Origin: an uncultured Lachnospiraceae bacterium
GTDB taxonomy: Bacteria; Bacillota; Clostridia; Lachnospirales; Lachnospiraceae
Reading direction: 5' to 3'
Assembly (NCBI GenBank): GCA_946566685.1
Contig: CAMNXA010000006.1
Coordinates: 14,699-78,698, forward strand
DNA: 64,000 nt
Shown: positions 5,337-59,553 of the stretch, in pieces
How the letters are laid out: every line of letters begins with the position of its first letter
Position numbering within the stretch: the stretch's first letter is position 1
Made by a program: the position numbers and the translations under genes
The notes under the pieces: model-generated
The model's database searches: none
What the model saw: only the letters and a program-made list of their open reading frames with translations
What the model was told of the DNA's origin: nothing

Positions 5337-5351
5337 ATCCACATCCTCCTT

Positions 5352-6008: not shown

Positions 6009-6017
6009 GCCATCTTA

Positions 6018-6027
6018 CCCCCCCCCC
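6018..6027 (-). repeat. homopolymeric C10 (G10 on the coding strand) just upstream of the permease start
   Basis: The minus strand reads GGGGGGGGGG-TAAGATGGC-ATG. The tract occupies the Shine-Dalgarno position of the gene starting at 6008. Confidence 0.9.
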
Positions 6028-6067
6028 GCACAAAAATCTGTTATATTAATGACGCGTGCAACCGTCA

Positions 6068-27336: not shown

Positions 27337-27474
27337 AATCTTATCCTCCTCTGAAATTTTTGTGGGGTTCCGGATATTTGACTGCGAAAAGCAAATCCCC
27401 TATCCTGTCTCCACATCCTGTATTACAAGCCGACATCCTTGTTAATCCAATACTCGCCGGCATAATACTCAGTT

Positions 27475-28197: not shown

Positions 28198-28209
28198 GGC
28201 CTCTTCCTC

Positions 28210-28899
28210 CTACCTGGCATCAGCCTTACGAAGCCTTGCCTCTATCCTGCCAAGCAGCAAGGTCAGTATCTTGATAAGTACATAATAGATAACCGCAGTG
28301 CCGATCAACGGCATGAAAGCAATAAAGGTCGCACTCTTGATAAAGTCACCCGCTTTCTGGATATCCATAAGTCCCACATAACCAACAATCGCTGTCTCCT
28401 TAATCAGCACGATAAATTCATTGCAAAGAGCCGGGAAAATATTTTTCACCGCCTGGGGAATGACAATCCTGCTCATGGTCTGAAAAGCGCTCAGGCCAAG
28501 GGATCTGCCCGCCTCCGTCTGTCCTTTGTCAATGGAAAGGATACCCGCCCGGATAATCTCGGACACGTAGGCGCCGGAGTTAATGCCAAAAGCGATCGCG
28601 GCAATGATCCATTTATCCAGCTGCACCGAGGCAAAAATAACAAAGTAGATGATCATCAGCTGTGTCACCGAAGGTGTTCCCCGAATCACATCCGTATAGA
28701 CACCGCCGACAAACCGCAGAATCTTTTTCCTGGACAGATTGCACATGGCAATCAGCATACCGATCATGATACCGATGATGACCGCCAGAAGGGATACTTT
28801 GATGGTCACGCCGATACCGCTTAAGAGCAGCTTGTACCGGTCCTCTCGAATGAAACATTTATAAAAAAGGTCACTGAAATTTGCCGCCCACTCCGCCAT
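28210..28899 (-). CDS. amino acid ABC transporter permease
   Basis: The EAA loop is TEAGRSLGLSAFQTMSRIVIPQAVKNIFPALCNE. It is the first gene of the permease-ATPase-SBP operon. Confidence 0.92.
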   Translation of the reverse strand: MAEWAANFSDLFYKCFIREDRYKLLLSGIGVTIKVSLLAVIIGIMIGMLIAMCNLSRKKILRFVGGVYTDVIRGTPSVTQLMIIYFVIFASVQLDKWIIAAIAFGINSGAYVSEIIRAGILSIDKGQTEAGRSLGLSAFQTMSRIVIPQAVKNIFPALCNEFIVLIKETAIVGYVGLMDIQKAGDFIKSATFIAFMPLIGTAVIYYVLIKILTLLLGRIEARLRKADAR

Positions 28900-41310: not shown

Positions 41311-41718
41311 TCAGATACTCTTCCTGATCGTTAAAATATTCTGTCCGTCCTTATATTCATAAGCAATATCATCCATGGTCTTTTTGACCATATAGATGCC
41401 AAGGCCGCCGATTTCCCGCTCCTCCGCAGAAAGCGTAATGTCCGGGTCATCTTCTGTGAGTGGATCATAAGGAACGCCGTTATCAATAAAAGTAATCACC
41501 ACAGACAAAGGATCATTCAACACCTCCACCCGCACCGTAGCCGGACCCACTTCCGGATTATAGGCATAGTGGGCGATATTTCCAAATAACTCGTCTATGG
41601 CAATATCAATCTGCATCTGCGCCTTCATCGGGCAGTCCATCGCTTCCAGTTGCTCATTCACAAAAGCAGTGACCTCCGCTATATTTTCAACTATCGCATC
41701 GACTGTCAGTTCCTTCAT
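41311..41718 (-). CDS. RsbW/SpoIIAB-type anti-sigma factor serine kinase (HATPase_c_2)
   Basis: The N-box is DELFGNIAHYA. It also has ITFIDNGVPYDPL and the G-box EIGGLGIYMVKK. The length is 135 aa. Confidence 0.8.
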   Translation of the reverse strand: MKELTVDAIVENIAEVTAFVNEQLEAMDCPMKAQMQIDIAIDELFGNIAHYAYNPEVGPATVRVEVLNDPLSVVITFIDNGVPYDPLTEDDPDITLSAEEREIGGLGIYMVKKTMDDIAYEYKDGQNILTIRKSI

Positions 41719-41741: not shown

Positions 41742-42239
41742 TTACACTTCCAGCAGTCTGCGTAATTTCTTAAGTGCACTGCCATGGATCAACTTAGCAT
41801 AACTATAGGAAATATGCATGATATCCGCAGTCACTTTCAAGGTATGTCCGCTATAATAATGCAGAATAATCAAATCCCTCTCCCGCTTCTCAATCCGTAA
41901 AAGGGCATCCGCCAGACGTTCCAACATCTCTTCAGAAAGAACCTGTTCTTCAATTCCCTTATCCTCCGCAGTCAGTTCCGTCAACTCGCTAAACTGCTTC
42001 GAAGTACGATAATAATCTATCACCACATTGCGCGTGATCGTATAAATCCAGGTCGAGACGGACGCTTTGCCTGCATCAAAAGAAGACAGGGCCGCAAACG
42101 CTTTCACAAACACGCCGGAAACCAGATCCTCCACCATGTGAGGATCTGGTACTTTCCCGGAAATATAACGGGTCACTTTTTCCTTATAGTCCAGATAAAT
42201 CTGTTCCTGTAATTTTTGATTCTCAACTGTTTCAGACAT
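41742..42239 (-). CDS. ECF-like sigma-70 family RNA polymerase sigma factor
   Basis: The region 2 pattern is ...DLVSGVFVKAFAAL..FD.....STWIYTITRNVVIDYYR. Region 4 is RERDLIILHYYSGHTLKVTADIMHISYSYAKLIHGSALKKLR. I take the ATG at 42239; the Arg-rich upstream extension is discarded. Confidence 0.85.
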   Translation of the reverse strand: MSETVENQKLQEQIYLDYKEKVTRYISGKVPDPHMVEDLVSGVFVKAFAALSSFDAGKASVSTWIYTITRNVVIDYYRTSKQFSELTELTAEDKGIEEQVLSEEMLERLADALLRIEKRERDLIILHYYSGHTLKVTADIMHISYSYAKLIHGSALKKLRRLLEV

Positions 42240-42429
42240 GGGGATGATCCCCCGTGGCCGCACCCGGCCTGGGCGAAGCCGGCACTTCCCCTGCCGCATT
42301 GACAAATTCCAGGTCATCATCCGACAGCGGCACACAGTATCCGGATGCCGCCTGCCCGATGACCGCTGCAAGCCGCTTATTGTTCGCAAACTGTTGATAA
42401 TCAAACAACCCTCTCAATACCCTGTCCAT
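42232..42429 (-). CDS. small ORF (65 aa) with a double-glycine-leader-like motif, translationally coupled to the sigma factor gene
   Basis: MDRVLRGLFDYQQFANNKRLAAVIGQAASGYCVPLSDDDLEFVNAAG|EVPASPRPGAATGDHPHV. An AAAGG lies 6-7 nt before the ATG. Its stop overlaps the sigma ATG in ATGTCTGA. Confidence 0.4.
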   Translation of the reverse strand: MDRVLRGLFDYQQFANNKRLAAVIGQAASGYCVPLSDDDLEFVNAAGEVPASPRPGAATGDHPHV

Positions 42430-42820: not shown

Positions 42821-42985
42821 TCATCTATCGGTTCTGCCCCCCCCCCCTGAAATATTCGGGGTTTTACCCTCTGTCTGCTCAATCCATGATCTGGTTTCGT
42901 TCTGTATCCTCATACCGCCGTTCACCTCATCCAGTTCTTCCTCTTCCAACAAAATACCCTGTACATTTTTTTCTTTATGATCCAT
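42821..42985 (-). CDS. 54-aa precursor-like peptide with a double-glycine leader (peptide A); apparently frame-split at a G11 tract
   Basis: MDHKEKNVQGILLEEEELDEVNGG|MRIQNETRSWIEQTEGKTPNISGGGGRTDR*. GGAGGTG lies 5 nt upstream of the ATG. It is the internal part of the 111-aa track ORF. Confidence 0.55.
   Translation of the reverse strand: MDHKEKNVQGILLEEEELDEVNGGMRIQNETRSWIEQTEGKTPNISGGGGRTDR
42837..42847 (-). repeat. G11 homopolymer inside peptide-A coding sequence
   Basis: I counted 11 consecutive C on the plus strand (42837-42847). Confidence 0.9.
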
Positions 42986-43070
42986 CTTTTCACCTCCGTT
43001 ATTGACTATACCGCTGCTTACACTTTGATACGAATCACTTCCGCCGCGGTCTAATAAAATCGTAAATTTA

Positions 43071-45284
43071 TTAAAATAATGTGGTTTTCCCCACATGCTG
43101 TACATCATCAAGCCGTTGTCTTGCCACCAACTCCGAGAAGTACCCACCCTTATCAATCAATTCGTCATAGGCGCCGTCCTCGATAATCTTCCCCTTGTCC
43201 AGCACAATGATCCTGTCGCACTGCCTGATGGTGGACAGGCGGTGGGCAATCACGATCCTGGTGCATTTTAACCTGTCAAGGGACTCCGAAACCGTCTTCT
43301 GCGTCAGGTTATCCAGGGCGGAAGTGGCCTCATCAAACATGAGAATCTTCGGTTTGGGGGCGATGGCGCGGGCAATCATCAGCCGCTGTTTTTGGCCGCC
43401 GGAAATGCCGCCTGCCCCCTCGGCAATCATGGTATGCATCCCCATGGGCATCCGCCTGATATCCTCCGCCATCCCCGCAAGTTCCGCCGCTTCCCAGGCC
43501 TCATCCAAGGTCAGCCAGGGCGCGGAGATGGTGATATTGGAATAAATATCTCCCAGAAACAGACTGCCGTTTTGCATCACCACACCAATCCGGCGGCGCA
43601 GGGACTTTAAGTCAATCGTGGTCAGGTCTTTGCCATCATAATAGACCGCGCCTTTCTGGGGCGTCTCAAATCCCAGCATCAGCCGCATCAGCGTGGACTT
43701 GCCGCATCCCGTTGCGCCCACGATGGCCACGTACTGGCCGGGACGGATTTTTAAGGAAAGATTGTCCAGAATCAGCGGCATATTTTCCTTGTAACGGAAG
43801 GACACATTGTTTAACTCTATCCCGCCGGAAAGTCTGGTAATCACCTGTTTGTTCTCGGCAATCTCCGGCACGTTTTCGAGAATCGGTCCGACCATTTCCA
43901 TCATGGGTCTAATCTGCGCAATGGTGAGCGCCACAGAGGACAGGGTCATAAAAGCCCCGGAGACCATGCCGTAAGCGGTATAAAAAGCATAGTAGTCCGC
44001 CACCGATATCTTCGTGCGGATGGCGGCATAATATATCACAAAAGTGCCCACCAGCGAAATGGCCGTGGAGATAACGCCGTTTATCTTGATCAGCATCGGC
44101 GGGTCATAGGCCAGCTTTGCCTGCTTCGCATAAAGATTGCCCCATCTGGCAAAGGCCCGCTTCTCCGCACCGGAGAGTTTGATCTTCTGTACCCCGGAAA
44201 TCATGGCATAGGACATACCGCCCTCCTTGGAAGCTAACTCCATCTGCCGCCTTACCAGTCTCATCTGCATCAGGGAAGTCAGCACCGTCACCAGGAACGT
44301 CACCCCGATCACCAGCAGAGCCGGCGTCACAAGAGCCGGCGCATATACAAATATCTGCGAGATATATAGCAGGGAAAAGAGGGACGTCAGGCCGGCGGAA
44401 AGCGCCACCGACACCAGCATCGTACACAGTTCCCCCACATACTGCATTCGGGAAGAAAGTTCCCCGGCGCTGTAATCCTTAAAAAAATCCGCCGGCAGAG
44501 ACATCACCCGGGACATCACCGCCGCCTGCACATGCACATCCAGCTTCGTTTCCATCCGGGCCATGACCAGTTGTTTTACCGCTGCAAAAAGTGCTGAACT
44601 GATGGCAACACAGACCATAAACACCAGGATGGACGATAACAGCCGCATACTGCCGGACGAAATCACCTCAGAGAACAAAATATGATTCAGCTTCGGCGCA
44701 AACATTCCCATCAGCGTGACCACGCATACCATCGCCAGAATCATGATAAAGTCCTTGACAGAGAAGGTCTGTAGCATATAGCGGATCAAATCCGAAAGAC
44801 CCAGCTTTTTCAGGGGAAACGGCTTATAGAAAGCAATCGCCTCCTCCTCGAACAACTCCTGGTTGTTATGATCAAACCTCTCTCTCTTCCCGCTTGCCGC
44901 ATCCAGATAGCTGTAACCGGAAATTCCGGCAGGGAGAAAAGCCGTGACGGCGCCATCGCTTTTACGCACCCCCAGCATCGCCCCGTCCGCATCCCGATAC
45001 CAGCCATCCGTCAATTTAACGGTTCTTCGCATAATGCCGTTGGGCCTTAGCAGAAATTCCAACTGCTCATTCATATCTTTGATACTGTCCGGTATCTCCC
45101 TGGATTTCACATGGTAGTATTTCAGAATCTCCTCCATGGCGTTTCTTGCCGTCTGCCTAGAATCGTTCAATGCCACAGATACACGGGATCCCATGACTGC
45201 ACCCGCAATGTTGACGAAGGCATCCTCAAGCATTTCGTTATCATTCTGTTTTCGTAAGCGGATCTGCTCGTCAAACCAGCCCAT
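43071..45284 (-). CDS. NHLM-type bacteriocin-system ABC transporter, ATP-binding/permease subunit without active peptidase (ABC2)
   Basis: It has a 6-TM domain, Walker A GATGCGKST, the signature ISGGQKQRLMIARA and FDEATSALD. The N-terminal ~160-aa domain has no CG... cysteine motif. GGGAGG lies 6 nt before the ATG. Confidence 0.85.
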   Translation of the reverse strand: MGWFDEQIRLRKQNDNEMLEDAFVNIAGAVMGSRVSVALNDSRQTARNAMEEILKYYHVKSREIPDSIKDMNEQLEFLLRPNGIMRRTVKLTDGWYRDADGAMLGVRKSDGAVTAFLPAGISGYSYLDAASGKRERFDHNNQELFEEEAIAFYKPFPLKKLGLSDLIRYMLQTFSVKDFIMILAMVCVVTLMGMFAPKLNHILFSEVISSGSMRLLSSILVFMVCVAISSALFAAVKQLVMARMETKLDVHVQAAVMSRVMSLPADFFKDYSAGELSSRMQYVGELCTMLVSVALSAGLTSLFSLLYISQIFVYAPALVTPALLVIGVTFLVTVLTSLMQMRLVRRQMELASKEGGMSYAMISGVQKIKLSGAEKRAFARWGNLYAKQAKLAYDPPMLIKINGVISTAISLVGTFVIYYAAIRTKISVADYYAFYTAYGMVSGAFMTLSSVALTIAQIRPMMEMVGPILENVPEIAENKQVITRLSGGIELNNVSFRYKENMPLILDNLSLKIRPGQYVAIVGATGCGKSTLMRLMLGFETPQKGAVYYDGKDLTTIDLKSLRRRIGVVMQNGSLFLGDIYSNITISAPWLTLDEAWEAAELAGMAEDIRRMPMGMHTMIAEGAGGISGGQKQRLMIARAIAPKPKILMFDEATSALDNLTQKTVSESLDRLKCTRIVIAHRLSTIRQCDRIIVLDKGKIIEDGAYDELIDKGGYFSELVARQRLDDVQHVGKTTLF

Positions 45285-45299
45285 AGGTTACCTCCCATA

Positions 45300-47477
45300 C
45301 TATGCACTTGCCACCAACTCCGTATACGCCCCGCCCTTGGCATACAGTTCCTCATGTGTGCCCCGTTCTATCACTTCTCCCTGCTCCAGCACAATGATCT
45401 CATCACAGTCCCTTATCGTGGAAAGGCGGTGGGCCACCACGATGCAGGTAATGCCCCTGTCCTTGATGGCCTTGACCACCTCATATTCGGTCTTGGCATC
45501 CAGTGCCGATGTAGCCTCGTCCAGGATAATGATGGTGGGATCCTGAGCCAGCACCCTGGCAATCTCCATGCGCTGCCTCTGACCACCCGAAAGATCCTTG
45601 CCGCCCTCCGTGATCTTATAGTTATAGCCGCCGTCCCTCAGCATGATATCCTCATGCAGCCTGGCATCCCTGGCCGCCATGATCATTTCAAAGTCCTCAA
45701 TCGAACTGTCCCACATCTTGATATTGTTGGCGATGGTATCTTCAAACAGGATAATGTCCTGATCCACCACCGCCAGGGATCCTGTGAAAATGCTTCTATC
45801 AATATCTTTCATCGGTTTACCGTCAAATAAAATCTCACCACTCCAGGGTTTGTACAGTCCCGATATCAGTTTGGAGAGTGTGGATTTCCCACAGCCGGAG
45901 GCGCCCACAAAGGCAACCCGGCTTCCCGTTTTCAAAGACAGGCTGAAATCCCTGATCAAAGGTTCGGCCAGTCTGGAATAACCAAAAGTCACGTTTCTCA
46001 GTTCCACGTTGCCCGACAGTTTGCCGTATTCCATGTCCTCTCCCGCTTCCTCATCATCAAATTCCACATCCACGGGATATTCCATCACATCCTCCACCCG
46101 CTCCATCTGCGTGCGCATCTCCTGCAAGGTCTGCCCCGCCGAAATCAGTGTCTGTGCCGGCGCGCTGAAAGATAAAAGGAATCCTTGAAAAGCCATGATC
46201 ATACCCACCGTAAACTGCCCCTGCATGGTAAGGTATGCACCAATGAGCAAGACCGCTATATTCGCAAAAGAGGCTGTCATCTCCGGGATTGCACCCAGAT
46301 ATTGGTTCAGACGGACAAACTTTACCTGCTGGGTATTTACACTGGCCTGATACCCCGCCCATTTTTCAAAGTATCCGTTCTCCGCGCCGCTGGCCTTAAT
46401 GGTCTCGATCATCTCGATACCGGAGGCAGTGGCCCCCGCCAGCCTGCCCGCATCACGCATCTGCACACGGGTGATATTCACCCGCTTCCTGGAGATGATA
46501 TTGGACACGAAAAGGTTGATCACGATCGAAGATAAGCTGATAAGAGCCAGTATGACACTGTAGCGAAGCATGACAATCAAATAGAACACCATCATCACCG
46601 TATTGAGTACAAGCGGCGCCAGCGTATTCACCAACTCCTGAGCCACGGAAGCGTTCATCGTCTGCCGCTGTTGGATATCTCCTGCCATCCTCTGGGCAAA
46701 AAATTCCATCGGCATACGGAGTACTTTCCACATATAGCCCGTACTGCCCACCACGGCCAGCCTGCCGTTAATCCGCAGGGAATAGACCGCTCGGATCCAT
46801 TCCACCACCAGCTGCAAGATTCCGATCCCGCCCAGCACAAGCAGAAACGGCGGCGCCCAGCCAGGATTGCGGCCCGTCAGCAGTCTGTCCAGAAATATCC
46901 GGGAAAAAACAGGATTGATAATCCCCAGCAGGGACGTGATCATAGTCGTCAAAACCACAAAGGCGATAGCGCTCCCCGCGCCTTTTAATCTCTTTTTCGC
47001 AAAGGAGAGCATACTCTTTTGTCTGCCGTCCGGTGCAAAGTCCTCTGCCGGCTCAAACATCAGACAGATGCCCGTAAAAGCCTCGTCAAAATCCTGCATG
47101 GTCACCGCATAGTTTCCTTTGGCAGGATCGTTTAAGTACGCTTTATTTTTCTGAAAACCGTTTAATACCACAAAGTGGTTGAAATTCCAATGGATGATGC
47201 AGGGAAAGGTTCCGTTCTGCTTTAGGTCTTCCGGCTCATAGCGGTACCCCTGGGCCTTAAGCCCATAACTTCTGGCCGCCCGCAGTACATTTTTGGCATT
47301 GGAACCGTCCCTGGATACGCCGCAGTCCGCACGCACCTGCTCCAGAGGAATCCATTTTCCATAATAGGCCAGAATCATGGTCAGTGAGGCGGCACCGCAC
47401 TCCAGCGCTTCCATCTGCATGACCACCGGCACCTTCGCCACGCCGTTTTTGACAGGCTTATTTATCGCCTTACCCAT
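45300..47477 (-). CDS. C39-peptidase-domain ABC transporter (double-glycine leader cleaving/export ATPase, ABC1)
   Basis: The C39 motifs are VVMQMEALECGAASLTMILAYYG and ...IIHWNFNHFVVL. It also has GASGCGKST, LSGGQRQRMEIARV and LDEATSALD. I prefer the ATG at 47477 (5 nt after GAGGTG) over 47498. Confidence 0.9.
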   Translation of the reverse strand: MGKAINKPVKNGVAKVPVVMQMEALECGAASLTMILAYYGKWIPLEQVRADCGVSRDGSNAKNVLRAARSYGLKAQGYRYEPEDLKQNGTFPCIIHWNFNHFVVLNGFQKNKAYLNDPAKGNYAVTMQDFDEAFTGICLMFEPAEDFAPDGRQKSMLSFAKKRLKGAGSAIAFVVLTTMITSLLGIINPVFSRIFLDRLLTGRNPGWAPPFLLVLGGIGILQLVVEWIRAVYSLRINGRLAVVGSTGYMWKVLRMPMEFFAQRMAGDIQQRQTMNASVAQELVNTLAPLVLNTVMMVFYLIVMLRYSVILALISLSSIVINLFVSNIISRKRVNITRVQMRDAGRLAGATASGIEMIETIKASGAENGYFEKWAGYQASVNTQQVKFVRLNQYLGAIPEMTASFANIAVLLIGAYLTMQGQFTVGMIMAFQGFLLSFSAPAQTLISAGQTLQEMRTQMERVEDVMEYPVDVEFDDEEAGEDMEYGKLSGNVELRNVTFGYSRLAEPLIRDFSLSLKTGSRVAFVGASGCGKSTLSKLISGLYKPWSGEILFDGKPMKDIDRSIFTGSLAVVDQDIILFEDTIANNIKMWDSSIEDFEMIMAARDARLHEDIMLRDGGYNYKITEGGKDLSGGQRQRMEIARVLAQDPTIIILDEATSALDAKTEYEVVKAIKDRGITCIVVAHRLSTIRDCDEIIVLEQGEVIERGTHEELYAKGGAYTELVASA

Positions 47478-47499
47478 TTCTTCACCTCGTTTTGTCATA

Positions 47500-47597: not shown

Positions 47598-48101
47598 CTA
47601 ATCATTTTCCGCAGTAGTGTTTAACAAAAACGACATCGGAGAAATACTCTCTGTTATCATGGACACCTCATAGACACCGTCAGGAAGCGTGGTCTTTGCT
47701 CTCACTTCATACACCCACTCCCCGGCCTGAAACCCGCCCAGATACAACAGATAGGCATCCGCACCCTGTGGGATTGCCACAGGCGCTGTCCCGATATCCA
47801 TAATCTGAAAGGACTGTTCTGCCACCGTAAGTTCCATCCCCGCTCCCACAGCCTTCCTCACCGCCTCGATATCGCTTTCCCTGACATAACAGGTAAACAC
47901 GCCGTCCTCACATGTCCCCGCGCTCTCAAGCCGAGTATCCAGATGCCCGAAAATGCCCCAGACGCACACGCCCACAAGCAGAATGATCACCGCCAGAAGC
48001 ACCATCCATACGCCCAGGCTTGATACCCGCACATAGTCATCCAGCTGCTCCGGTGAGGAAATCCGCTGGATACTGGATTTGCGAAATAATTGTCCGTTCA
48101 T
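47598..48101 (-). CDS. short HlyD-like secretion adaptor of NHLM-type bacteriocin systems
   Basis: The N-terminus LFRKSSIQRISSPEQLDDYVRVSS plus one TM helix is the hallmark start of this adaptor family. At 167 aa it is much shorter than canonical HlyD proteins. Confidence 0.7.
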   Translation of the reverse strand: MNGQLFRKSSIQRISSPEQLDDYVRVSSLGVWMVLLAVIILLVGVCVWGIFGHLDTRLESAGTCEDGVFTCYVRESDIEAVRKAVGAGMELTVAEQSFQIMDIGTAPVAIPQGADAYLLYLGGFQAGEWVYEVRAKTTLPDGVYEVSMITESISPMSFLLNTTAEND

Positions 48102-48123: not shown

Positions 48124-49503
48124 TTACTTCTCCGCCACGCCTACCTGGAACTTATATTTCTTCTGAAAACGGTCATGGTTAAAGGCATTGACCACATCCC
48201 AGCCGTTACAGTGCCCGGAACACATAAAGCTCTCACATCTGGACAACATGTAGAGAGCATAAAAATAGTTGACGGTGGTATCCTCCAGCGCCGCTTCATA
48301 CGCTTCCCCGCTCTTTTCCTGCTTCTCCAGGTCACTGATCAGCGCCACATCCTTAAAATCGCTGACCCGATGTCTTTCCTGCGCAATGACGCGTATCTTA
48401 CCCTGAAACTCAGCCTGCATCACATCCAGAATATCCTGATCCTCGGTAGCCAGGAAAATGGCATCATATCGATCCTCCTCCATCCACTCATGTATCATGG
48501 GCAGCATTTCGTCCACCGTAGCCATCTTGCGGGCGCCGGTCATCCTGGAGACCACATAGTCCGTTCCCCGCATGAGGATTCCCAGCATCCGTCTGTTGCC
48601 GATGACTGCCTCCTCATACTCTTTCAATTCCTGAATAAAACTGTCGCTTAAGATACTGTCATCAAAATCCGCATTGCATTTCGCCACGAAATGAGTCGGT
48701 ACCAGCGGCACCGTGTTGGTCACATAGATGGTATTGGTCTCATCGGAATCCTCACAGGCCACATCCAGGTTAAAATACCGCTCCAGCATGTCATCCTTGT
48801 ACCGGGTGCTGTCCCGTTTCAACACTGTTTTCCAGCCTAATTGCTTAAAGGCATTATTAATCCTTGTATAATGTGCCAGGATCGCACCGATTCCTGCCAC
48901 CATACCCAATCCCACTTCCACATACTTCACATCAGACAGCGGGATATCCATCAGCCACTGCCAGATAAAGACATTGTTAAATAACGGGATCAGGCTGATG
49001 GAGCGAAAATCCGCACTGTTAAATCCCAGTGAAAACTGCTGCCCGCTGCGAAGGACATTCCCTTCCGCCCTGTCGGGGAGGTCTGTGGTCACATGCAGTC
49101 TCTCATGGGGTTCCACAAACCAGTAAATCCGTTCATCAGGAATCCACACTTCTTTCTCTGTGTAATCCAGGATAATCTTCGTCAGAACCACGCTGTACTC
49201 GTTAAGATCCTCAAACACGGCGCCGTTGTACTCCTGAAATACGTCCAGATATAAAGCTTCCCGATCCGTCTCATCGTACAGGTAATACGGGGGCAGCATC
49301 CTATATCCTTTCAGCACAGCCATATTGGGCGCCTGTTCATTATTTTCCATATAAATCAGGTCATAATCCTCCCCCTTGTCGTTTCTCACATGAAATCTGT
49401 TCTCGCCCTTCAGGACTGCCCGCAGTGCGTTGTGAAATACCTGGTCATTATGCCTTAAGGTCCTGCAATTCTCATTTTTATCCGCTTCTACAATCTGTAA
49501 CAT
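48124..49503 (-). CDS. hypothetical 459-aa protein; the C-terminal half has fucosyltransferase-superfamily-like motifs (tentative)
   Basis: A clean ORF with GGGAGG upstream. The motifs LGILMRGTDY (HxRxxD-like), AIFLATEDQD and DTTVNYFYALYMLSRCESFMCSGHCNG occur in the order seen in GT11/GT23/POFUT-like enzymes. The N-terminal ~280 aa are unassigned. Confidence 0.6.
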   Translation of the reverse strand: MLQIVEADKNENCRTLRHNDQVFHNALRAVLKGENRFHVRNDKGEDYDLIYMENNEQAPNMAVLKGYRMLPPYYLYDETDREALYLDVFQEYNGAVFEDLNEYSVVLTKIILDYTEKEVWIPDERIYWFVEPHERLHVTTDLPDRAEGNVLRSGQQFSLGFNSADFRSISLIPLFNNVFIWQWLMDIPLSDVKYVEVGLGMVAGIGAILAHYTRINNAFKQLGWKTVLKRDSTRYKDDMLERYFNLDVACEDSDETNTIYVTNTVPLVPTHFVAKCNADFDDSILSDSFIQELKEYEEAVIGNRRMLGILMRGTDYVVSRMTGARKMATVDEMLPMIHEWMEEDRYDAIFLATEDQDILDVMQAEFQGKIRVIAQERHRVSDFKDVALISDLEKQEKSGEAYEAALEDTTVNYFYALYMLSRCESFMCSGHCNGWDVVNAFNHDRFQKKYKFQVGVAEK

Positions 49504-49580: not shown

Positions 49581-52500
49581 TTACAGCCAGACTACCAACT
49601 GATTTTTCCCTTCTTCATATGTATAACTGCTGTCCACAAGCACAGACTTCACCAACCGGATAGAGAGTTCCTCCCCCTCCTCCAGCGGATGATACTGCCT
49701 GCCGCCCCATACAAACCGCATGGCCAGCCTGCCGTCCGCCTCATAATATTCCGTGGTAATCTCCAGAGCGTCCTCCCCATCCCGGTTCGGCACAATATTG
49801 AGCGCACAGATTTCCTCGAATGCCCGGCGCAGATTCTCTACCTGTCTGCGGCTCAAAAGATGCTTTTCGCCAAACTGCTGCAGGGACTCGCTCATGGCAA
49901 TAAAGTCATAGTCCGGCGAAGTAATCCGGAACTGCAATACTTTTAGCCGTTTAACAAAAGCCCTGGTTTTCTCTTTCACGGGATTATCAAAAATCTCTTC
50001 CGGCGTCCCTTCCTCATATATCTCCCCCTGATCCATATAGAAAATCCGGGTACTCACATCCCTGGCAAACTTCATCTCATGGGTGACGATCATCATCGTG
50101 AGTCCTTTGGCCGCAAGCTGCCTGATGACCGCCAGTACCTCGCCCACCATGGTGGGATCCAGAGCGCTGGTGGGCTCATCAAACAGCACGATCTCCGGCC
50201 GCATGGCCAGGGTCCTGGCAATGGCCACACGCTGTTTTTGGCCGCCGGACAGCTCATCCGGATAGGAGAGCGCCCGTTCTGCCATACCTACGGTCTTTAG
50301 CAGATACATGCCATAGGCAAAGGCCTCCTGTTTCATCTCACCTTTTAACTGCGTGGGCGCCAGCATCACATTTTCAATCACAGTCAAATGCGGGAACAGA
50401 TTAAAACTCTGAAACACCATTCCCATCCGCTTGCGAAGGCTGCACAAATCCACATCCTTCTTCCCGGTGTCTTCCCCAAACACGGTAATCTTCCCGCCTG
50501 TAGGCGTTTCCAGACGATTCAGGCAGCGCAGGAAGGTAGATTTACCGGTTCCGGACGGCCCGATGATGGTAATGACCTCCCCGCTGTGAACCACCGTATT
50601 CACATCCTTTAACGGCGACACATCGGCATACTCCTTATGTAAATGCTCCACATGGATCAGATCCCTGGCCTCTCCTGACAATGCCTGTTCCTTCGTCTCT
50701 TCATAACAGGCGCTGGTATCTACGCCCTGGGGATATCTGCGCGGCCCGCGCTTCACATCCAGCTTCCACTCCACCCTGCCGATGGCAAAGGCCGCCACCG
50801 CCGAGATGGCAAAGTAAATCGCCGCCGTAGCAATCAGCGGGAAAAACGCCTCGTAAGTACGACTTCTGATAATGTCCCCCGCCTTGGTCAGATCCTCAAT
50901 GGAAATATAACCCACGATGGAGGTCAGCTTTAACATGGAGACAAATTCTCCCCGGTAAATGGGCAGCACCTGCCGCACCGCCTGGGGCATGATAATCTGC
51001 ATGAAGGTTTTACCCCTGCCAAATCCCAGGGCCTGGGCCGCCTCCCACTGGCCGGCATCTATGGTATGGATACCAGTATTTAAGATTCCCGCCACCGCCA
51101 CTGCAAAGATCAGGGAAAAGGAAATGATACCCACCGTCACCGGCGCAATCTTCACCGAAGCAAACACCACAAAATAAATGATCATCAACACTACAAGACT
51201 GGGGATACCCTCCATCAGATGACAGAGTCCCTTTGCCAGCATGGCAAGGGGTTTATTACGGCATCTTAACCATAGGCACAGCAAAAATCCCAGAACTGTT
51301 CCGATCATACCCGCCAGAACGGCAATCTCAAGTGTCACCAGCAGGCCGCTCCAGATCAGCTTCCAGCGGTCTTCCCGGATAAAGGTTTTTTCAAAGCTGT
51401 CCGCCAGTCCATCAAAAAAGCCGGCCTCTTCCACACAGTCTCCCTCATCCGCCACCGCCATGACGGTTTCCACATAAGTATAGGGGATGGAAAAAGCCAT
51501 CACTTCCCGTTTCTCCGGTGTTTCAAACAGGTTGGACATGATATAGTCCACCTTGCCGGACACACAGGCCGGCGTGATCCCGTCCCAGTCGTAAGTCTCC
51601 ACCGCCAGTTCTGCATTGCACCAGCCGGCAAAACGTCTCATCAATTCCAGGTCATACCCTGTCAGTTCTGTCCCTTCATAGAAAGAATAAGGTTCCACCA
51701 GTCCTGTGGTTCCCACAGTGATGGTATAGTCCGGTTCCTCGGCCTCTGCGACCTCCGGCATGGTATAATCGTGTTCTACCAGCCAGCGTCTGCGCATATC
51801 TTCCAGTGTCCCATTTTCTGACATTTCTGTCAGAAATGTATTGATCTTATCCTCCGCATCCGGAATCCCCGTCACCGGGCTGATGGCCACTGCCACATTG
51901 CCCGGCTCTCCGACAGTGGCATTCCCATAGACACGCAGTCCCTCATTACCGCTGGCAAGATAGCTTTCAAGAGTCGTCTTATCTACGGCAAAGGCATCCG
52001 CTTTCCGGCTTGTCACCGCCAAAAACCCACCTATGGCATCGTCCACAATAATAAACTTCGCCCGCGGATAGACTGCCTTTGCGGCAGTTTCTGTGGTCGT
52101 ACCGGTCTCTACGGCAATCACGGCAGACTCTCTGTTCAGATCAAAAGTCTCCGCTCCGTCCACATTTTGCGTCCGGCACAGAAAGACCGTGCCGCCCGAA
52201 TAATAGGATTCACAAAAATCCACACTCTCGGCACGTTCTTGCGTAACAATGATACAGCAGGCCGCAATATCCGCTTTATTCTGCTGGATAAAAGACACCA
52301 GGGAGGCAAACTTTGTCTCGATCAGTTCCACTCCCATATCCAGTCTGTCCGCGATCATCAGTACCAGTTCTGTCTCAAGTCCTGCCGGCTTTCCATCATT
52401 GCCAATATAGAGCATGGGCATATTGGTGCCGTCAAAGGCAAAGCGCAGCACGCCGCCGGGACGCTCGGAAAGATCATACAAAGACCAGTCAATCTTCATG

Positions 52501-52994
52501 ATCTCCTCGTCTCCGCTGAGCCATTTCCCGGCCAAGGCCTCAATGGTTCCATCCGCTTTCAACTCCCGGATGACTGCTGACACCTCATCCGTCAAAGGCC
52601 CATCCTTTTTCAGGATCATGCTGTAATCATCCGCAGAAATAATCTCCGGAAATACCGCAAACTCCCCCGGTCTCTGGGCTGATGCCATCTGCGCCACAGG
52701 GCCGTCCAAGGCCACCGCCTCCACATCGCCCTTTTTCAGGGCCTCCAATTGCGTAGTCAGATCGTCATAATGGTTGTAGCTTAAATCATCAAATTTTTCA
52801 TCCAATACCTGGTCATACAAAGATCCCGTCAGCGTGGCAATGGTAGTGCCCTCAAAGTCTTTCAGCGTCCGGTAGACTGCATCTGTCTGTTCCTTATTGC
52901 CGCATCCCGTTACTTCGGCCAGCGCCGTACATATTATTAAAATGAAAAGTGCCGCCTTATATCTCGCCATTTGTGCTTTCATTCCTTTTATCAT
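49581..52994 (-). CDS. single-chain amino-acid-type ABC transporter: lipoprotein signal + substrate-binding domains + permease + ATPase + RsbW-like tail
   Basis: The lipobox is VTGCGN. SBP_bac_3-like segments come next, then the permease (…[33 protein letters not shown]…). The ATPase has [24 protein letters not shown] and [12 protein letters not shown] 118-aa C-terminal extension follows. An ATGA overlap links it to the upstream STAS gene. Confidence 0.85.
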
Positions 52995-53287
52995 TCCACC
53001 GTCAGGATATCCGAAAATCCTGTGACTTCAAACACTTCCATCACTGTCTCACAGACATTCCGGATGACCATACTGCCCTGTTTGTTCATGATCTTCTGTG
53101 CCGAGAGCAGGACTCGTAACCCCGCAGATGAGACATACTCAAGATTCGCAAAATCAAGAGCCAGTTCCGTCATGCCGTCAAGGGATTCCTTGAGCGCCTT
53201 TTCCAGTTCCGGGGCCGTCATGGTGTCCAGCCTGCCTTCCACTCCCACTGTCAATGTTGTCCCTGTTACATTTTTGTTGATTGTCAT
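52991..53287 (-). CDS. STAS-domain anti-sigma-factor antagonist (SpoIIAA/RsbV-like)
   Basis: ...[22 protein letters not shown]...[20 protein letters not shown]... contains the conserved phosphorylatable Ser context. The ATG at 53287 follows AAAGGAG. Confidence 0.88.
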
Positions 53288-53371
53288 AATGCTTCTCCTT
53301 TTCATTGTTATTGTGAAATTACTTCTGATGCTTTCACAGTCCGCACTTTCCTTCCGAAAACCATCACCGCG

Positions 53372-54787
53372 TCACTTTCTGACTTTGACCGCCATCATGG
53401 TAATATCATCGAACTGCATGGCATTTCCCACAAAGTCATCGATATCCGCCCTGACCTCCTGAAGCAGTTCCTGGGAACTGGCATCCTTCTTTCTGTTCAG
53501 AGCCTGTAGCATCCTGTCCGTACCGTAAAGCCGGTCGTCCTCATCGGAAGCCTCCGCCACCCCATCGGTATACACAAAGAGCATATCTCCCTTATGGAGT
53601 TCTATCACATACTCCTGATAGGAAACATCTTCCATACCCGCCATCACAAAGCCATGTTTATCTTTCAACAGTTCAAAAGAGCCATCCGCCCGTTTCACCG
53701 CCGGATATTCATGTCCGGCATTGACCGCCGTCAGTTTTCCCGTGGCGATCTCATAGACGGCCAGCCAGACAGTGACAAACATCTCGGCTTCGTTATTTTC
53801 CAGAAGCTGGTTATTTACGGTCTCCATCGCCTCCTTGGGTGACAGTCCCGACTGCACGGCATTTTTTAATAAAGTCTTGGTAATCATCATAAACAGGGCC
53901 GCCGGCACTCCCTTACCGGAAACGTCCGCTATCACAAGCGCCAGATGGTTCTCATCCACCAGAAAGAAATCATAGAAATCGCCGCCCACTTCCTTGGCCG
54001 GATGCATGGATGCATAAATATCAAACTCCTCATATTCCGGAAATGCCGGAAAGACACAGGGAAGCATGGAAGCCTGAATCTGCGTGGCCACATGGAGTTC
54101 CGCACCGATCCGCTCCCGCTCCCGGTTATCCAGTTCCTGCTGCTTAAGCAGACCATGCGTCCGTCTGGAGAGGGTAACGCCAATCAGATAGACCACCACC
54201 AGGATCACGGCTCGCGGGATATAATAAAAATTAAACACCCGCAGCAAGAGATTATCCCCGGCCGCTGTGGCCTCTCTGATAAAAGCCGCCCGGAATGCAG
54301 CATCTCCCGGCAGATCCACACAGCGCATCATATTGGCATCCCATACCCCGAAATACAGCCCGACATACACCGAACAGAGCATGCAAAGCAATACCCCTGC
54401 CAGCGTGATATGGGCAAACTTCGGAGAATAATAGTGACAGGAAAGGATAATCGGACAGGCCCATGCCATCACCAGCTGAATCGTCAGTGTGGAAGACAGA
54501 ATCCCCAGCCCCAGAAGAAAACACCCCATAATGAGATATTTCAATAACCACTCCTGCCCTTTCCACACCCGTACCAGTAATGACGGCAGCAAAAATAATG
54601 CCACACCGACAGGCATAGCAGTGTTCATTAAACCCTTGTCCACTATAAAAAATCCCAGTATATTCAAGATCCACATGAGCGCCGCAATGCCTGCCGCGAT
54701 CAAAAGACAGAAGGCCGTATAACGGTTCGCCTTCTTTTCATTCAACTTAAAAATATCCAAATGCATTGTATCCATCAGCTTCAACAA
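53372..54787 (-). CDS. membrane-bound PP2C-family serine phosphatase (SpoIIE/RsbU-like)
   Basis: It has a multi-TM N-terminal half. The C-terminus is ...EVGGDFYDFF...VIADVSGKGVPAALFMM...YTDGV...DDITMMAV. The start is TTG 54787 or ATG 54775. Confidence 0.88.
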   Translation of the reverse strand: MLKLMDTMHLDIFKLNEKKANRYTAFCLLIAAGIAALMWILNILGFFIVDKGLMNTAMPVGVALFLLPSLLVRVWKGQEWLLKYLIMGCFLLGLGILSSTLTIQLVMAWACPIILSCHYYSPKFAHITLAGVLLCMLCSVYVGLYFGVWDANMMRCVDLPGDAAFRAAFIREATAAGDNLLLRVFNFYYIPRAVILVVVYLIGVTLSRRTHGLLKQQELDNRERERIGAELHVATQIQASMLPCVFPAFPEYEEFDIYASMHPAKEVGGDFYDFFLVDENHLALVIADVSGKGVPAALFMMITKTLLKNAVQSGLSPKEAMETVNNQLLENNEAEMFVTVWLAVYEIATGKLTAVNAGHEYPAVKRADGSFELLKDKHGFVMAGMEDVSYQEYVIELHKGDMLFVYTDGVAEASDEDDRLYGTDRMLQALNRKKDASSQELLQEVRADIDDFVGNAMQFDDITMMAVKVRK

Positions 54788-54961
54788 TCTCCTTAAGCGT
54801 AAGACGATATCCCTATTCTATATCATTTTATGCATAAAAAAAGCGTCCGGCAAAAATGTTACCTGACGTTTATTTTCGCAGTTAAATTTTGAAATTTACA
54901 CAAATACTTTTATGCTATACTTATGTTTAAATCAATCTTCAGGAAATTAAGAGGTGAAAAG

Positions 54962-55654
54962 ATGTACAGGATACTAATGGTGGATGACGATCCCATGATA
55001 TTAAAGAACAATCAGACTTTTTTCTGTGCGATGGGATATGATGTGATCTGTGCTGATACCGCTGCCGCGGCGGAAGAGATCATTCTCTCCAATGCTCTGG
55101 ATTGTATTATTCTGGACGTAGACCTTCCGGACATGGATGGCTTTGCGCTGTGTGAAAAGATACGTTTAAAGACCGGTCTCCCCATCGTCTTTCTCTCCGG
55201 CTATACCGAAGAAGAAAGCCGCATCCGCGGACTCTCCGTGGGCGGCGATGACTATGTATGCAAACCTTACAGTCTGAAAGAACTGGAACTGCGCGTACAG
55301 GCCCGCATCCGGGCAGGCAGGGCGGCCGAACCGCCTAAAACACTTAACTTTGGCGCTTTTTCCATCAGCCCTTCCTCTTGCAGTGCAAGCTATGACTCCC
55401 GCTCCGTGGACTTTTCTTCTTATGAATTTGATGTGCTGTATTTCCTGGCCAGACATCCCGGCAAAATCTTTACCCCGGAGCAGATCTATGATTCCGTGTG
55501 GAAGGCGCCTATCATCAAAGGTCAGAAATCCCTGCAAGTCATTATGGGACGTATCCGCAGAAAACTCTATGAACTATGCCCTGACCACGACTACATCCAG
55601 ACCAAACGCTATAAGGGATATCTCTTTGTCCCTGATGAAAAGAGTGACGTATAG
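54962..55654 (+). CDS. OmpR-family response regulator
   Basis: The receiver is ILMVDDDP...CIILDVDLPDMDG. The winged helix is ...YEFDVLYFLARHPGKIFTPEQIY...GYLF. GAGGTG precedes the ATG at 54962. Confidence 0.92.
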   Translation: MYRILMVDDDPMILKNNQTFFCAMGYDVICADTAAAAEEIILSNALDCIILDVDLPDMDGFALCEKIRLKTGLPIVFLSGYTEEESRIRGLSVGGDDYVCKPYSLKELELRVQARIRAGRAAEPPKTLNFGAFSISPSSCSASYDSRSVDFSSYEFDVLYFLARHPGKIFTPEQIYDSVWKAPIIKGQKSLQVIMGRIRRKLYELCPDHDYIQTKRYKGYLFVPDEKSDV

Positions 55655-57482: not shown

Positions 57483-57555
57483 ACAACTGTTCCTCTCACC
57501 AATCAGATGGCTATCTGTTATACCATCGCCTCAATGCCCCGAAATGGAGATTACC

Positions 57556-59553
57556 ATGAAACAGACAATCTTTTCCAATTATGCAAAACAGGCCGTCCTG
57601 ATCATAGCCGGCACAGCCATCCTGACTCTGCTCGGGCTTTGGGCAATCACCTGTTATGATAACAAATATATAGCAAAATCCGCGCACACACAAGATAATT
57701 CTACACAAATCCCCGCAAAAGGATATGTCTCCCTGGTGGATGGCTGGACACTGTACCCAGATATTTTACTTAATCCGCAAGATCTTGCCTCCCAGGCTGC
57801 GGCAGACCATCCGGCCTACAGCACCTGGGCCGGTGAATATCCGAATCTCTCCCTGTTTCACGAAGATCGAAGTCCCTACGGCACCGCCACATGGCATCTG
57901 CGTCTGCAGGGCAAGGGTGTATTCACCCTCTATCTGCCGGAACCCCTGTGCGCTGCCAGGGTGTTTGTGAACGGGCAATGTCTTGGTCAGACAGGGGAAG
58001 TCCATCCGGAAAGTTACAAGCCCCTGATTCGTGATTCTTTCTTTTCCTTTGCCCTGGACGGCGAGGCAGAACTGCTTATTCAGACAGCCAATTACTCTCA
58101 TTATTACGGGGGCATCTGGTATGTGCCCGTAATCGGAGATCCGGACAGCATCCATCATCTGACTGCCGCCCGGATGACTGTCTATGTACTGCTCTTTGCA
58201 GTCTCCTTCACCCTTTCCCTGTTTTGCATGGTTCTCTGGAAACGCAGCCACACTGCAAAAGACCGGGTAAACTTTTACTTTGGGATGGGGAGTATTTCCT
58301 TCGCCCTGCGCATCTGTTATCCAGTCTTTCGTCTGTCAGGCGTACCGCTTGTGCGAACCCTCTATGCTCTGGAAGACGGTGCGGCGATGCTGGGCATCTA
58401 TTTTTCCCTGCAAATTGCACTTCTGCTGTTCTTGCCAAACAGTTCCCAGCGCTTCAAGAACGTCCTGCGTGCCATTGCCCTGATCGTTTCCGGCACAGTC
58501 GTTGTGATGCCCATGCTTATACTGCCCGCGGTTCCCGGTCTTGTCCCCCTGTACGGGACATTCATCTCCTGGTATAAACTGCTCATGTCCGGTCTTTTCA
58601 TCAACCTCACCATCTATGGCGGTTTTACAGGCGCTGACCATACCAGAAGCATTCTTGCGGCCGCCTGTGCAAACGGTATCTGCCTGCTGTACGGTGTTCT
58701 CTCCATCGGCGGATACGAACCGATCATTGGCGCATATCCGGAAGAATATGGCGCCTTCTGCATGGTCATTGCCTTCGCAGTTCTCATGATACAGCGAAAT
58801 CATGCCATGGCTGAGGAGAACAGGAACCTGAATCTGCATTTACAGGAAGAAGTACAGGAAAAAACAAGACATTTACAGAAGCTTCTTGCTGAAAGAGGAC
58901 AGCTGCTCGCAGAACTGGGACACGATATGAAATCGCCTCTGACCGCCCTCTCCAACATGGCACAAATCATCCGCTTAAACGACATTATGCTGGACGAAGA
59001 TACCCGTGAGAGAATGATCCACATAGAAGAGCAGTGCGATATTTTGTCCAGACGGCTCAAATCCATTCAGGAGATAGCCGCCCAGACCAGCGCTCCCATG
59101 TCCATGGAACCTGTCGTACTGAACACTTTTCTCTCTGATTTCGGACGCAACTGCCGTCCGATTATAGAACTGAACGGTACCAGTTTTATAGAAAAAATCG
59201 ATTCCTGTCCATATCGTGTTATGGCCAGCCGCGACCAGCTTTTCCGCGCCCTGGAAAACCTGCTGTATAACGCTGCCGACTTTACTCCTGCTGACGGAGA
59301 GATCTCGCTTTCCCTGACGGCAGATAAATCAACCGCATATATTACCATTGCCGATACCGGATGCGGGATATCGAAAGAGGACCTGCCGCGCATTTTCCAT
59401 CGCTCCTATACCACCCGCGCTGACAAAGGCGGCCAGGGTCTGGGACTTGCCATCACCCGCGCCATTGTATTGGAGCACGGCGGACAGATCTCGGCGCAGT
59501 CCATAGAAGGAGAGGGCACCACATTTACCATCAGGCTGCCGTTACTTTCCTGA
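57556..59553 (+). CDS. sensor histidine kinase with N-terminal extracellular + 7-TM (7TMR-DISM-like) module
   Basis: The H-box is ELGHDMKSPLTAL. The N/G boxes are LLYNAADFT, DTGCGI and GQGLGLAITRAI. The ATG at 57556 lies 5 nt after GGAGA. Confidence 0.88.
   Translation: MKQTIFSNYAKQAVLIIAGTAILTLLGLWAITCYDNKYIAKSAHTQDNSTQIPAKGYVSLVDGWTLYPDILLNPQDLASQAAADHPAYSTWAGEYPNLSLFHEDRSPYGTATWHLRLQGKGVFTLYLPEPLCAARVFVNGQCLGQTGEVHPESYKPLIRDSFFSFALDGEAELLIQTANYSHYYGGIWYVPVIGDPDSIHHLTAARMTVYVLLFAVSFTLSLFCMVLWKRSHTAKDRVNFYFGMGSISFALRICYPVFRLSGVPLVRTLYALEDGAAMLGIYFSLQIALLLFLPNSSQRFKNVLRAIALIVSGTVVVMPMLILPAVPGLVPLYGTFISWYKLLMSGLFINLTIYGGFTGADHTRSILAAACANGICLLYGVLSIGGYEPIIGAYPEEYGAFCMVIAFAVLMIQRNHAMAEENRNLNLHLQEEVQEKTRHLQKLLAERGQLLAELGHDMKSPLTALSNMAQIIRLNDIMLDEDTRERMIHIEEQCDILSRRLKSIQEIAAQTSAPMSMEPVVLNTFLSDFGRNCRPIIELNGTSFIEKIDSCPYRVMASRDQLFRALENLLYNAADFTPADGEISLSLTADKSTAYITIADTGCGISKEDLPRIFHRSYTTRADKGGQGLGLAITRAIVLEHGGQISAQSIEGEGTTFTIRLPLLS

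Follow-up and report, generated by a model that had tools for sequence, protein, structure and literature searches.

A predicted polar-amino-acid ATP-binding cassette (ABC) importer of an uncultured Lachnospiraceae bacterium terminates in a domain which, on the evidence of sequence profiles and of the predicted fold, is almost certainly a degenerate homologue of the RsbW/SpoIIAB-type (HATPase_c_2) serine kinases. The DNA analysed, hereafter the window, is a stretch of 64,000 nucleotides (assembly GCA_946566685.1, contig CAMNXA010000006.1, positions 14,699 to 78,698 of the forward strand). The importer is encoded as a single fused protein of 1137 aa by an open reading frame on the minus strand (49581..52994), and the degenerate domain, hereafter the tail, corresponds to residues 1020-1137 (49584..49937). 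Genes for a STAS protein, a PP2C phosphatase and an intact RsbW-type kinase, the components of a partner-switching module, reside in the same minus-strand cluster. The tail is proposed to be the receiver of this module: the unphosphorylated STAS protein would dock directly on the dead domain and regulate transport, while a separate RsbW kinase and a membrane PP2C phosphatase set its phosphorylation. The probability assigned to this reading, with the transporter as the output, is about 0.5. The data suggest that a signalling module switches nutrient transporters directly.

The relationship of the tail to RsbW had been proposed in an earlier note on this DNA, made from the letters and their translations. 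The 118 residues singled out there are exactly the last residues of the importer, and their colinearity with the 135-aa RsbW-like protein encoded at 41311..41718 was found again by BLASTP, which aligned residues 71-116 of the tail to residues 73-131 of the kinase (E = 3e-6, in a single comparison). Both blocks aligned in the earlier note were recovered, with ITFIDNGVPYDPL and IAYEYKDGQNILTI as the partners on the RsbW side. A single gap of 13 residues in the tail takes out the ...REIGGLG... segment of RsbW; the ATP-lid segment is missing as stated in the note, its length being 13 rather than about 14 residues. The spacing of 84 versus 85 residues, cited there for the two proteins, needs correction, as the measured distances are 84 (Leu1-Leu85) and 83 (Leu4-Leu87), the colinearity being unaffected. 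Alignment of profiles by hhalign, 60 tail homologues versus 20 RsbW homologues, gave a probability of 96.8% (E = 3e-10), and the match spans tail residues 28-117 and RsbW residues 29-132, again with one lid-sized gap; the probability was 82.7% when 5 tail sequences only were used. The expected affiliation to HATPase_c_2 emerges therefore from profile-profile comparison with the RsbW family and not from Pfam, as the window tail scores below the PF13581 cut-off (12.8 bits, E = 0.12, versus 27.4). HATPase_c_2 is nevertheless the sole Pfam family recurring among the 60 tails, 8 of which match it at E <= 0.01 (best 3.9e-5). NCBIfam searches with the tail alone found nothing, and searches of PDB sequences with phmmer and hmmsearch yielded chance matches only (PvuII, a dioxygenase, OspA).

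The tail was also modelled alone with AlphaFold2. The mean predicted local distance difference test score (pLDDT) was 66.6 with a 5-sequence alignment, and rose to 92.2, with a predicted TM score (pTM) of 0.85, when 9 sequences were aligned. Elements in the model follow the order strand, helix, helix, strand, strand, short helices, strand, strand, and the predicted structure conforms to the Bergerat alpha/beta fold with the strand and helix order of RsbW. In Foldseek searches of the PDB with the better model, ranks 1 to 19 are all occupied by RsbW (6m36/6m37), UsfX (8jzt/8ih8), SpoIIAB (1tid/1th8/1til), the RsbW domain of Rv1364c (3ke6) and SiaB (6kko), the best TM score being 0.81 at a root-mean-square deviation of 2.3 A. 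Top PDB matches were exclusively anti-sigma serine kinases with both models, in line with what had been anticipated for the tail taken alone. Many of the matched entries are complexes with STAS partners, as RsbV/RsbW (6m37), UsfX-RsfB (8ih8), SpoIIAB-SpoIIAA (1tid/1th8) and SiaB-SiaC (6kko).

Loss of the catalytic elements was assessed by aligning 124 distinct domains, derived from the window and from the related loci described below, which include 20 small RsbW proteins, 7 PP2C-RsbW fusions, 68 ABC tails and 29 domains fused to other transporters. The lid motif GxG[LIVMFY]G is found in 19/20 small RsbW proteins and 7/7 PP2C-RsbW fusions, in none of the 68 ABC tails and in none of the 29 other fused domains. 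The adenine-binding Asp (D79 in RsbW) is conserved in 26/27 kinases and missing in all ABC tails (0/68), where it is replaced by Tyr in 61 members and by Trp in the window; none of the other fused domains has it either (0/29). The Mg-binding Asn (N47 in RsbW) is similarly present in 26/27 kinases, absent in the ABC tails (0/68; Gln in 63, Leu in the window), and found in 6/29 other fused domains. The N-box Glu, in contrast, marks all classes (27/27 kinases, 68/68 ABC tails, 25/29 other fused domains). In the window tail, W77 takes the place of the adenine Asp in the G1 box (DxGxG), L46 that of the Mg-binding Asn, and the N-box E42 is kept; the G1 Gly and the C-terminal G-x-N strand motif are retained in the tail as well. 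Because the lid is deleted and both the adenine Asp and the Mg-binding Asn are replaced, the tail is very probably a pseudokinase, as the earlier note had supposed, and a tail lacking kinase activity is to be expected with high confidence from these substitutions. In a set of 89 sequences, residues D11, E41, E42 and G79 are near-invariant, each being conserved in >90% of the members, and F22, Y64, Y/W77, P84, D89, S92 and N112 are strongly conserved. E41, E42, Y/W77, G79, D89 and S92 line the former nucleotide site. The domain thus appears to be held under selection, yet ATP binding by it is not plausible.

An exhaustive HMMER search with the tail, run over 1.84 billion cluster representatives (50% identity), identified 280 clusters which carry it at E <= 1e-3, always at the C-terminus. 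Fragments apart, the proteins measure either about 360-380 aa (ATPase plus tail) or 880-1160 aa (fully fused), and homologues of 1120-1161 aa feature the same fused architecture as the window protein. They are annotated at source as 'amino acid ABC transporter ATP-binding protein'. Word-indexed protein searches, a 60-sequence profile included, returned just 4, and later 8, relatives. An assembly or frameshift artefact as the origin of the fusion was ruled out, since the architecture is shared by many independent assemblies. Lid-less domains were found on other membrane proteins in the related loci: at the N-terminus of SDF-type Na+:dicarboxylate/amino-acid symporters (L002, L011, L064), and at the C-terminus of MatE proteins (L025, L035), of a xanthine/uracil permease (Xan_ur_permease, L021) and of a hydrophobic protein of 300 aa which no Pfam family matches (L067). 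In some loci, such as L005, one STAS gene is ringed by four or five transporters bearing the domain. To judge from these sequences, the lid-less domain is a family spread over at least four transporter classes.

The related loci, numbered with the prefix L, are 80 in all, and were retrieved by scanning GTDB species genomes for a pattern based on a 13-sequence tail alignment. The genomes belong to Lachnospiraceae, Acutalibacteraceae, Oscillospiraceae and other Clostridia, to Phascolarctobacterium, Spirochaetales, Formimonas and Pelotomaculum. Neighbouring genes were searched with hidden Markov models (HMMs) iterated from the STAS, PP2C and RsbW proteins of the window. As control, 80 metagenome loci (895 kb) surrounding relatives of a tail-less polar-amino-acid ATPase of the same window were scanned with the same HMMs. 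Among the 29 tail loci flanked by at least 5 kb on each side, STAS genes were found in 15, PP2C genes in 19, small RsbW genes in 14, and at least one part of the module in 21. No STAS, PP2C or RsbW gene was detected in the 80 control loci. For STAS, comparison of those loci which satisfy this 5-kb limit (15/29 tail loci versus 0/31 control loci) gives a Fisher p of 1.5e-6; for any part of the module, tail versus control loci, p is 5e-10.

STAS genes frequently adjoin or overlap the tail ABC genes within one operon. The typical order, in which the substrate-binding protein (SBP) is fused to the permease, is [SBP-permease][ATPase-tail][STAS][PP2C][RsbW], with 15-120 bp separating the tail gene from STAS (L002, L003, L005, L012, L019, L055, L058); alternatively, the STAS gene resides right before the permease gene or overlaps it, as in L008, L035, L050, L052, L054, L069 and the window. 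PP2C and kinase genes are contiguous with STAS in L002, L003, L005, L012, L019, L055, L058 and L161. In L072, a 373-aa STAS-domain protein (3-1124; E = 5e-24), in place of the usual single-domain STAS, is encoded directly before two SBP-permease genes and an ATPase-tail gene.

The neighbourhood was inspected from the kinase side too, by looking at the locus of P0044, a kinase 81% identical to that of the window and named Otoolea muris by its source, with the aid of precomputed Pfam labels. Genes there are ordered SDF, cNMP-binding protein, SBP-permease, ABC_tran (357 aa), STAS, MatE (584 aa), GH3, SpoIIE, HATPase_c_2. HMMs confirmed that both the 357-aa ATPase and the MatE protein end in a dead domain. 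A sigma factor is absent from this locus; among the 80 related loci a sigma homologue was found in 4, and is absent from the other 76. The cNMP-binding protein of the Otoolea muris-labelled module is small, and its gene is interposed between the SDF and the ABC genes. Genes of the GH3 family (acyl-acid amido synthetases) sit between the gene for the MatE protein carrying the domain and the PP2C gene in L161 (6624-8294), as in L162 and L163, and an identical gap of about 1.6 kb is present in L035, L050 and L052.

Divergence of STAS proteins follows that of the tails also when divergence of the ATPase domain is taken into account (partial Mantel r(STAS, tail given ATPase domain) = 0.47, p = 2e-4). 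Mean divergence amounts to 57% of the aligned positions in the tails, 35% in STAS and 25% in the ATPase domain. The slow evolution of STAS relative to the tails is as expected of a hub protein, and lends a little additional support. A functional link of the tail to the STAS/PP2C/RsbW module is considered likely.

The three components are encoded in the window as follows. The 135-aa RsbW-type serine kinase (41311..41718, minus strand; PF13581, E = 6.8e-20) keeps every motif (E43, N47, D79, G81 and GGLG at 104-107), and is 72-78% identical to the kinases which end the STAS-PP2C-RsbW modules in L002, L012, L025, L050, L058 and L064. Because of this identity, the protein is taken as the kinase of the module, apparently moved in this genome to the far end of the minus-strand cluster, and presumably phosphorylates STAS. 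The STAS protein (52991..53305, minus strand) matches the model of anti-sigma-factor antagonists (TIGR00377, E = 6.3e-20), and is 64-69% identical to STAS proteins encoded next to tail-ABC operons elsewhere (Phascolarctobacterium, Clostridia). Its gene overlaps the start of the transporter gene by ATGA, as previously noticed (...GTGGAATGATAAAAGG...). In alignments, Ser60 falls on the Ser that is phosphorylated in RsbV (DSTGL, 6m36_B) and in SpoIIAA (DSSGL, 1th8_B and 1tid_B); in the 1tid chain, this Ser of SpoIIAA is mutated to Ala. Across 22 STAS orthologues the SSAGLR motif does not vary, and helix 2 of the window protein begins with a putatively phosphorylatable Ser. The PP2C phosphatase (53372..54787, minus strand) is membrane-anchored and of the SpoIIE type, with NCBIfam matches to SpoIIE, RssB and SiaA over residues ~208-469; it is about 50% identical to module phosphatases from L002, L007, L012, L025 and L050, and its catalytic half about 52%, Phascolarctobacterium included. 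The protein presumably dephosphorylates STAS-P and receives the signal.

Kinase and STAS proteins are unusually conserved across Lachnospiraceae-like, Acutalibacteraceae and Phascolarctobacterium (Negativicutes) genomes, and this conservation suggests either horizontal spread of a cassette or strong constraint on the hub protein. In L047 (4463-6910) a single protein unites the PP2C, an intact RsbW kinase and dCache/HAMP sensor domains, the Pfam scan of such proteins being confined to this one. PP2C (SpoIIE) and intact RsbW kinase domains reside on one protein also in L067 (3081-5612), L068 (3249-6065), L075 (4791-7241) and L076 (3164-5698).

The host protein is, by its domain content, a polar-amino-acid ABC importer of the GlnPQ/HisP type. 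Pfam and NCBIfam matches identify two SBP_bac_3 domains, a BPD_transp_1 permease domain and a GlnQ-like ABC_tran domain, all encoded on the minus strand. The top-scoring SBP_bac_3 domain maps to 51780..52448 (PF00497, E = 1.5e-47, in 3 stretches), the permease domain (residues ~565-742) to 50769..51302 (PF00528, E = 4.6e-15), and the GlnQ/HisP-type ATPase domain (residues ~780-1016) to 49947..50657 (PF00005, E = 2.9e-34). The NCBIfam GlnQ model matches the latter at E = 3.3e-85 from profile position 2 to 238 of 240, and stops at residue 1016, where canonical importers end. As a complete ATPase is already closed at this point, the tail is an additional domain.

In the mechanism favoured here, partner switching would be divided into three jobs. 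The intact RsbW kinase (41311-41718) would phosphorylate STAS at Ser60, the membrane PP2C (53372-54787) would strip the phosphate upon a signal, and unphosphorylated STAS (52991-53305) would dock onto the dead RsbW-like domains of both ATPase subunits. Docking would alter the closure of the ATPase domains, and amino-acid uptake would be switched on or off post-translationally, either sign being conceivable. C-terminal regulatory domains of ABC importers, as in MalK and MetN, affect ATPase closure. By analogy, since RsbW and SpoIIAB form dimers and a transporter has two ATPase subunits, a STAS protein bound to a tail dimer could restrain or promote closure. In related genomes, one STAS protein may act on several transporters together (ABC, SDF, MatE and xanthine/uracil permeases). 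We infer binding of STAS to the tail, its dependence on phosphorylation, the direction of the signal and the effect on transport; docking is favoured because STAS and tail genes are linked in operons, the two proteins diverge together, and kinase-dead RsbW proteins which bind STAS partners provide a precedent (PMC7693655). The broader view, that this is a sigma-less partner-switching module whose STAS hub gates nutrient and efflux transporters directly through lid-less RsbW-derived receivers fused to each of them, and that such a module is widespread in gut Clostridia and occurs also in Negativicutes and some Spirochaetes, is held tentatively, at slightly less than even odds for the whole.

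Several points weigh against this reading. The loci scanned are skewed to one tail subfamily ([FV]EE[LI][CG][VDQ]Q..) and are not phylogenetically independent. The HMMs were trained on these same loci and may miss distant STAS proteins, in which case the contrast with the controls would be somewhat inflated; control loci, moreover, are metagenome contigs, tail loci GTDB genomes. In 8 of the 29 well-flanked loci no part of the module was found within 10 kb. The Mantel test can be distorted if the tail and the ATPase domain evolve at different rates or are saturated. The window kinase is encoded 8 kb away from STAS and beside a sigma factor gene of the extracytoplasmic function (ECF) type, and here a sigma output is possible. 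Finally, the ATP lid, deleted in the tail, reportedly forms part of the surface through which SpoIIAB contacts SpoIIAA (1TH8 work), and a lid-less domain might bind STAS differently, or not at all.

The same homology and linkage data would also be compatible with the transporter being the sensor rather than the output. Depending on the transport cycle or the substrate load, the tail would hold or release STAS or else the kinase, so that the flux of nutrients would determine the phosphorylation state of the module, and the output would lie elsewhere, for example in the ECF sigma factor. 'Trigger transporters' which signal are known, and in the window the kinase gene does adjoin the ECF sigma gene. 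The earlier note had favoured this direction, from transporter state to partner switching. The opposite one, from module to transporters, is judged to fit better because the module has sensor phosphatases of its own (a membrane domain in the window, dCache and HAMP in L047), a sigma factor or other output gene is usually missing (sigma in just 4/80 loci), and several unrelated classes of domain-bearing transporters, found around one module, are more easily viewed as outputs than as sensors. A sensory role of the transporter is accordingly regarded as unlikely. The scarcity of sigma genes bears also on the idea that the tail is a membrane-tethered, non-kinase anti-sigma factor, which sequesters a sigma factor (here the ECF protein, 41742-42404) until STAS releases it. 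UsfX, the structurally closest protein, belongs to a kinase-lacking group of anti-sigma factors, and a sigma gene is present in the window cluster; the 76 of 80 loci without a sigma homologue, and the sigma-less Otoolea muris-labelled locus, speak against the idea, as does the fact that RsbW-type anti-sigma factors normally pair with sigma factors of the SigB/SigF type, not ECF. A tethered anti-sigma factor is thus highly improbable.

The tail might bind the kinase rather than STAS, heterodimerising with intact RsbW through the RsbW dimer interface, and either recruit it to the membrane or silence it. RsbW and SpoIIAB proteins are homodimers, RsbW1 of M. smegmatis has a binding antagonist in its homologue RsbW3 (PMC7693655), and small RsbW genes accompany the tails in 14/29 loci. 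Since the gene most often adjacent to, or overlapping, the ABC operon is STAS and not the kinase, two tails per ABC transporter could already homodimerise, and tail divergence is tracked by that of STAS, for which the Mantel test was run, this pairing seems rather improbable. Conservation of the former nucleotide site, which is lined by the most conserved tail residues, would also suit an autonomous small-molecule-binding domain mediating trans-inhibition as in MetN and ModC, with the partner-switching neighbours being merely co-regulated. The ATPases of ABC importers commonly end in regulatory domains that bind a ligand. The lid is gone, however, and the bulky aromatic residue replacing the adenine Asp probably fills the pocket; the domain is carried by four unrelated transporter classes with different substrates, and its linkage to STAS, PP2C and RsbW genes is tight, often within the same operon. 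A ligand-binding tail is considered a shade more improbable again than one pairing with the kinase. That an old gene fusion left the tail behind as a decaying relic with no function could be argued from the loss of every catalytic motif, and is strongly disfavoured by its occurrence in 280 clusters at 50% identity with near-invariant D11, E41, E42 and G79, by the confidently predicted fold, and by independent fusions of the domain to other transporters.

Starting from the PP2C gene, the minus-strand cluster continues with the genes for STAS, the ABC-tail protein, two uncharacterised proteins and a pair of C39-peptidase ABC exporters, followed by the ORF of a small peptide, the ECF sigma factor gene and the kinase gene. 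The two proteins between the tail transporter and the exporters, of 459 aa (48124-49503) and 167 aa (47598-48101), have no Pfam match. The exporters map to 45300-47498 and 43071-45284, and one contains a Peptidase_C39 domain. Directly downstream of both is a small ORF (42821-43156, minus strand) in which an internal Met would give a peptide of about 54 aa, MDHKEKNVQGILLEEEELDEVNGG|MRIQNETRSW..., resembling a double-glycine leader peptide. Exporters and peptide may form a unit for export of a bacteriocin or of a signalling peptide inside the partner-switching cluster. Exporter pairs of ~730-750 aa like those of the window (43071-47498) recur beside STAS/RsbW genes or tail-bearing transporters in L033, L039, L044 and L074, and the peptide exporter may be part of the same conserved neighbourhood. 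The ECF-type sigma factor gene (41742..42404, minus strand; TIGR02937, E = 4.2e-25) lies directly upstream of the kinase gene, and its true start is probably internal; whether it is connected to the partner-switching module is uncertain. Proteins encoded on the opposite strand flank the cluster, a 243-aa response-regulator-like (54923-55654) and a 669-aa membrane histidine-kinase-like protein (57544-59553), both judged from their translations only. Two more polar-amino-acid ABC systems are present in the window (4560-6880 and 26569-28899, minus strand), with SBP, permease and ATPase encoded as separate genes; at both, the tail and STAS, PP2C or RsbW neighbours are absent.

The tail family shares fold and order of elements with the RsbW, SpoIIAB and UsfX kinases (TM 0.7-0.8 to 8jzt, 8ih8, 6m37 and 1tid). 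In contrast to these, which are free proteins, the tail domain is fused to transporters, lacks the 13-residue lid (GGLG), features Trp/Tyr in place of the adenine Asp and Leu/Gln in place of the Mg-binding Asn, and usually has no sigma factor nearby. A similar split of labour is known from the mycobacterial SigF system, where a kinase-dead RsbW is the partner of STAS and a separate, active RsbW phosphorylates it. In M. smegmatis, RsbW2 alone phosphorylates the STAS protein RsfB, and the kinase-negative RsbW1, which is closest to UsfX, is an anti-SigF factor antagonised by RsfB (PMC7693655). The best structural matches of the tail include UsfX. The mycobacterial dead RsbW is a soluble anti-sigma factor controlling transcription, whereas that of the window is a domain of a transporter, and its presumed output is transport.

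STAS proteins whose state is set by a PP2C phosphatase together with an RsbW-type kinase serve outputs other than sigma factors in P. aeruginosa SiaABCD, in HsbA-HsbD, in Bordetella BtrUVW and in Vibrio SypE/SypA. The STAS target in these systems is an enzyme or an unknown partner, and neither an RsbW-derived receiver nor a transporter is known to be involved; the SiaB-SiaC complex of SiaABCD (6kko) was one of the PDB entries matched by the tail model. In the MlaB-MlaF pair a STAS-fold protein regulates an ABC ATPase by binding directly to the ATPase core. The window STAS differs from MlaB, as it is a typical anti-sigma antagonist (TIGR00377) and barely touches the MlaB model. An MlaB-type pairing of STAS and ABC proteins was ruled out, the score to NF033618 being 21.3 bits (E = 2.7e-4) against a cut-off of 90. 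Regulatory input is taken by C-terminal additions to the ATPase in MalK, which responds to EIIA-Glc, and in MetN, which responds to methionine; the known regulatory domains of this sort (MalK, MetN, ModC, OpuAA) have TOBE, NIL or CBS folds, and thus differ from the Bergerat fold of the tail. All the ingredients are of known kinds, namely partner switching, the GHKL fold, RsbW homologues devoid of kinase activity, non-sigma STAS targets and the pairing of STAS with ABC proteins in Mla. Full-text literature searches and a review of STAS proteins yielded nothing on transporter-fused or lid-less RsbW-like domains, on links between STAS proteins and amino-acid ABC transporters, or on partner switching controlling transporters, and the family-level pattern, a dead RsbW-like domain on transporters, is to our knowledge undescribed.

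If the proposed reading is correct, the three-protein switch would control, beyond sigma factors and a few enzyme outputs, also membrane transport, and would do so post-translationally. In the course of evolution, a catalytically dead docking module, which can be attached to unrelated transporters, would have been made out of the 'anti-sigma' partner. This would amount to a previously unrecognised class of transporter-regulatory domains, and to a new output logic for partner switching. A function would be assigned to an unannotated domain found in at least 280 protein clusters of gut and rumen anaerobes, and the existence of STAS/PP2C/RsbW modules with no sigma factor nearby would be explained. 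In abundant gut Lachnospiraceae, Oscillospiraceae and Phascolarctobacterium, uptake of amino acids would be under coordinated, signal-dependent control.

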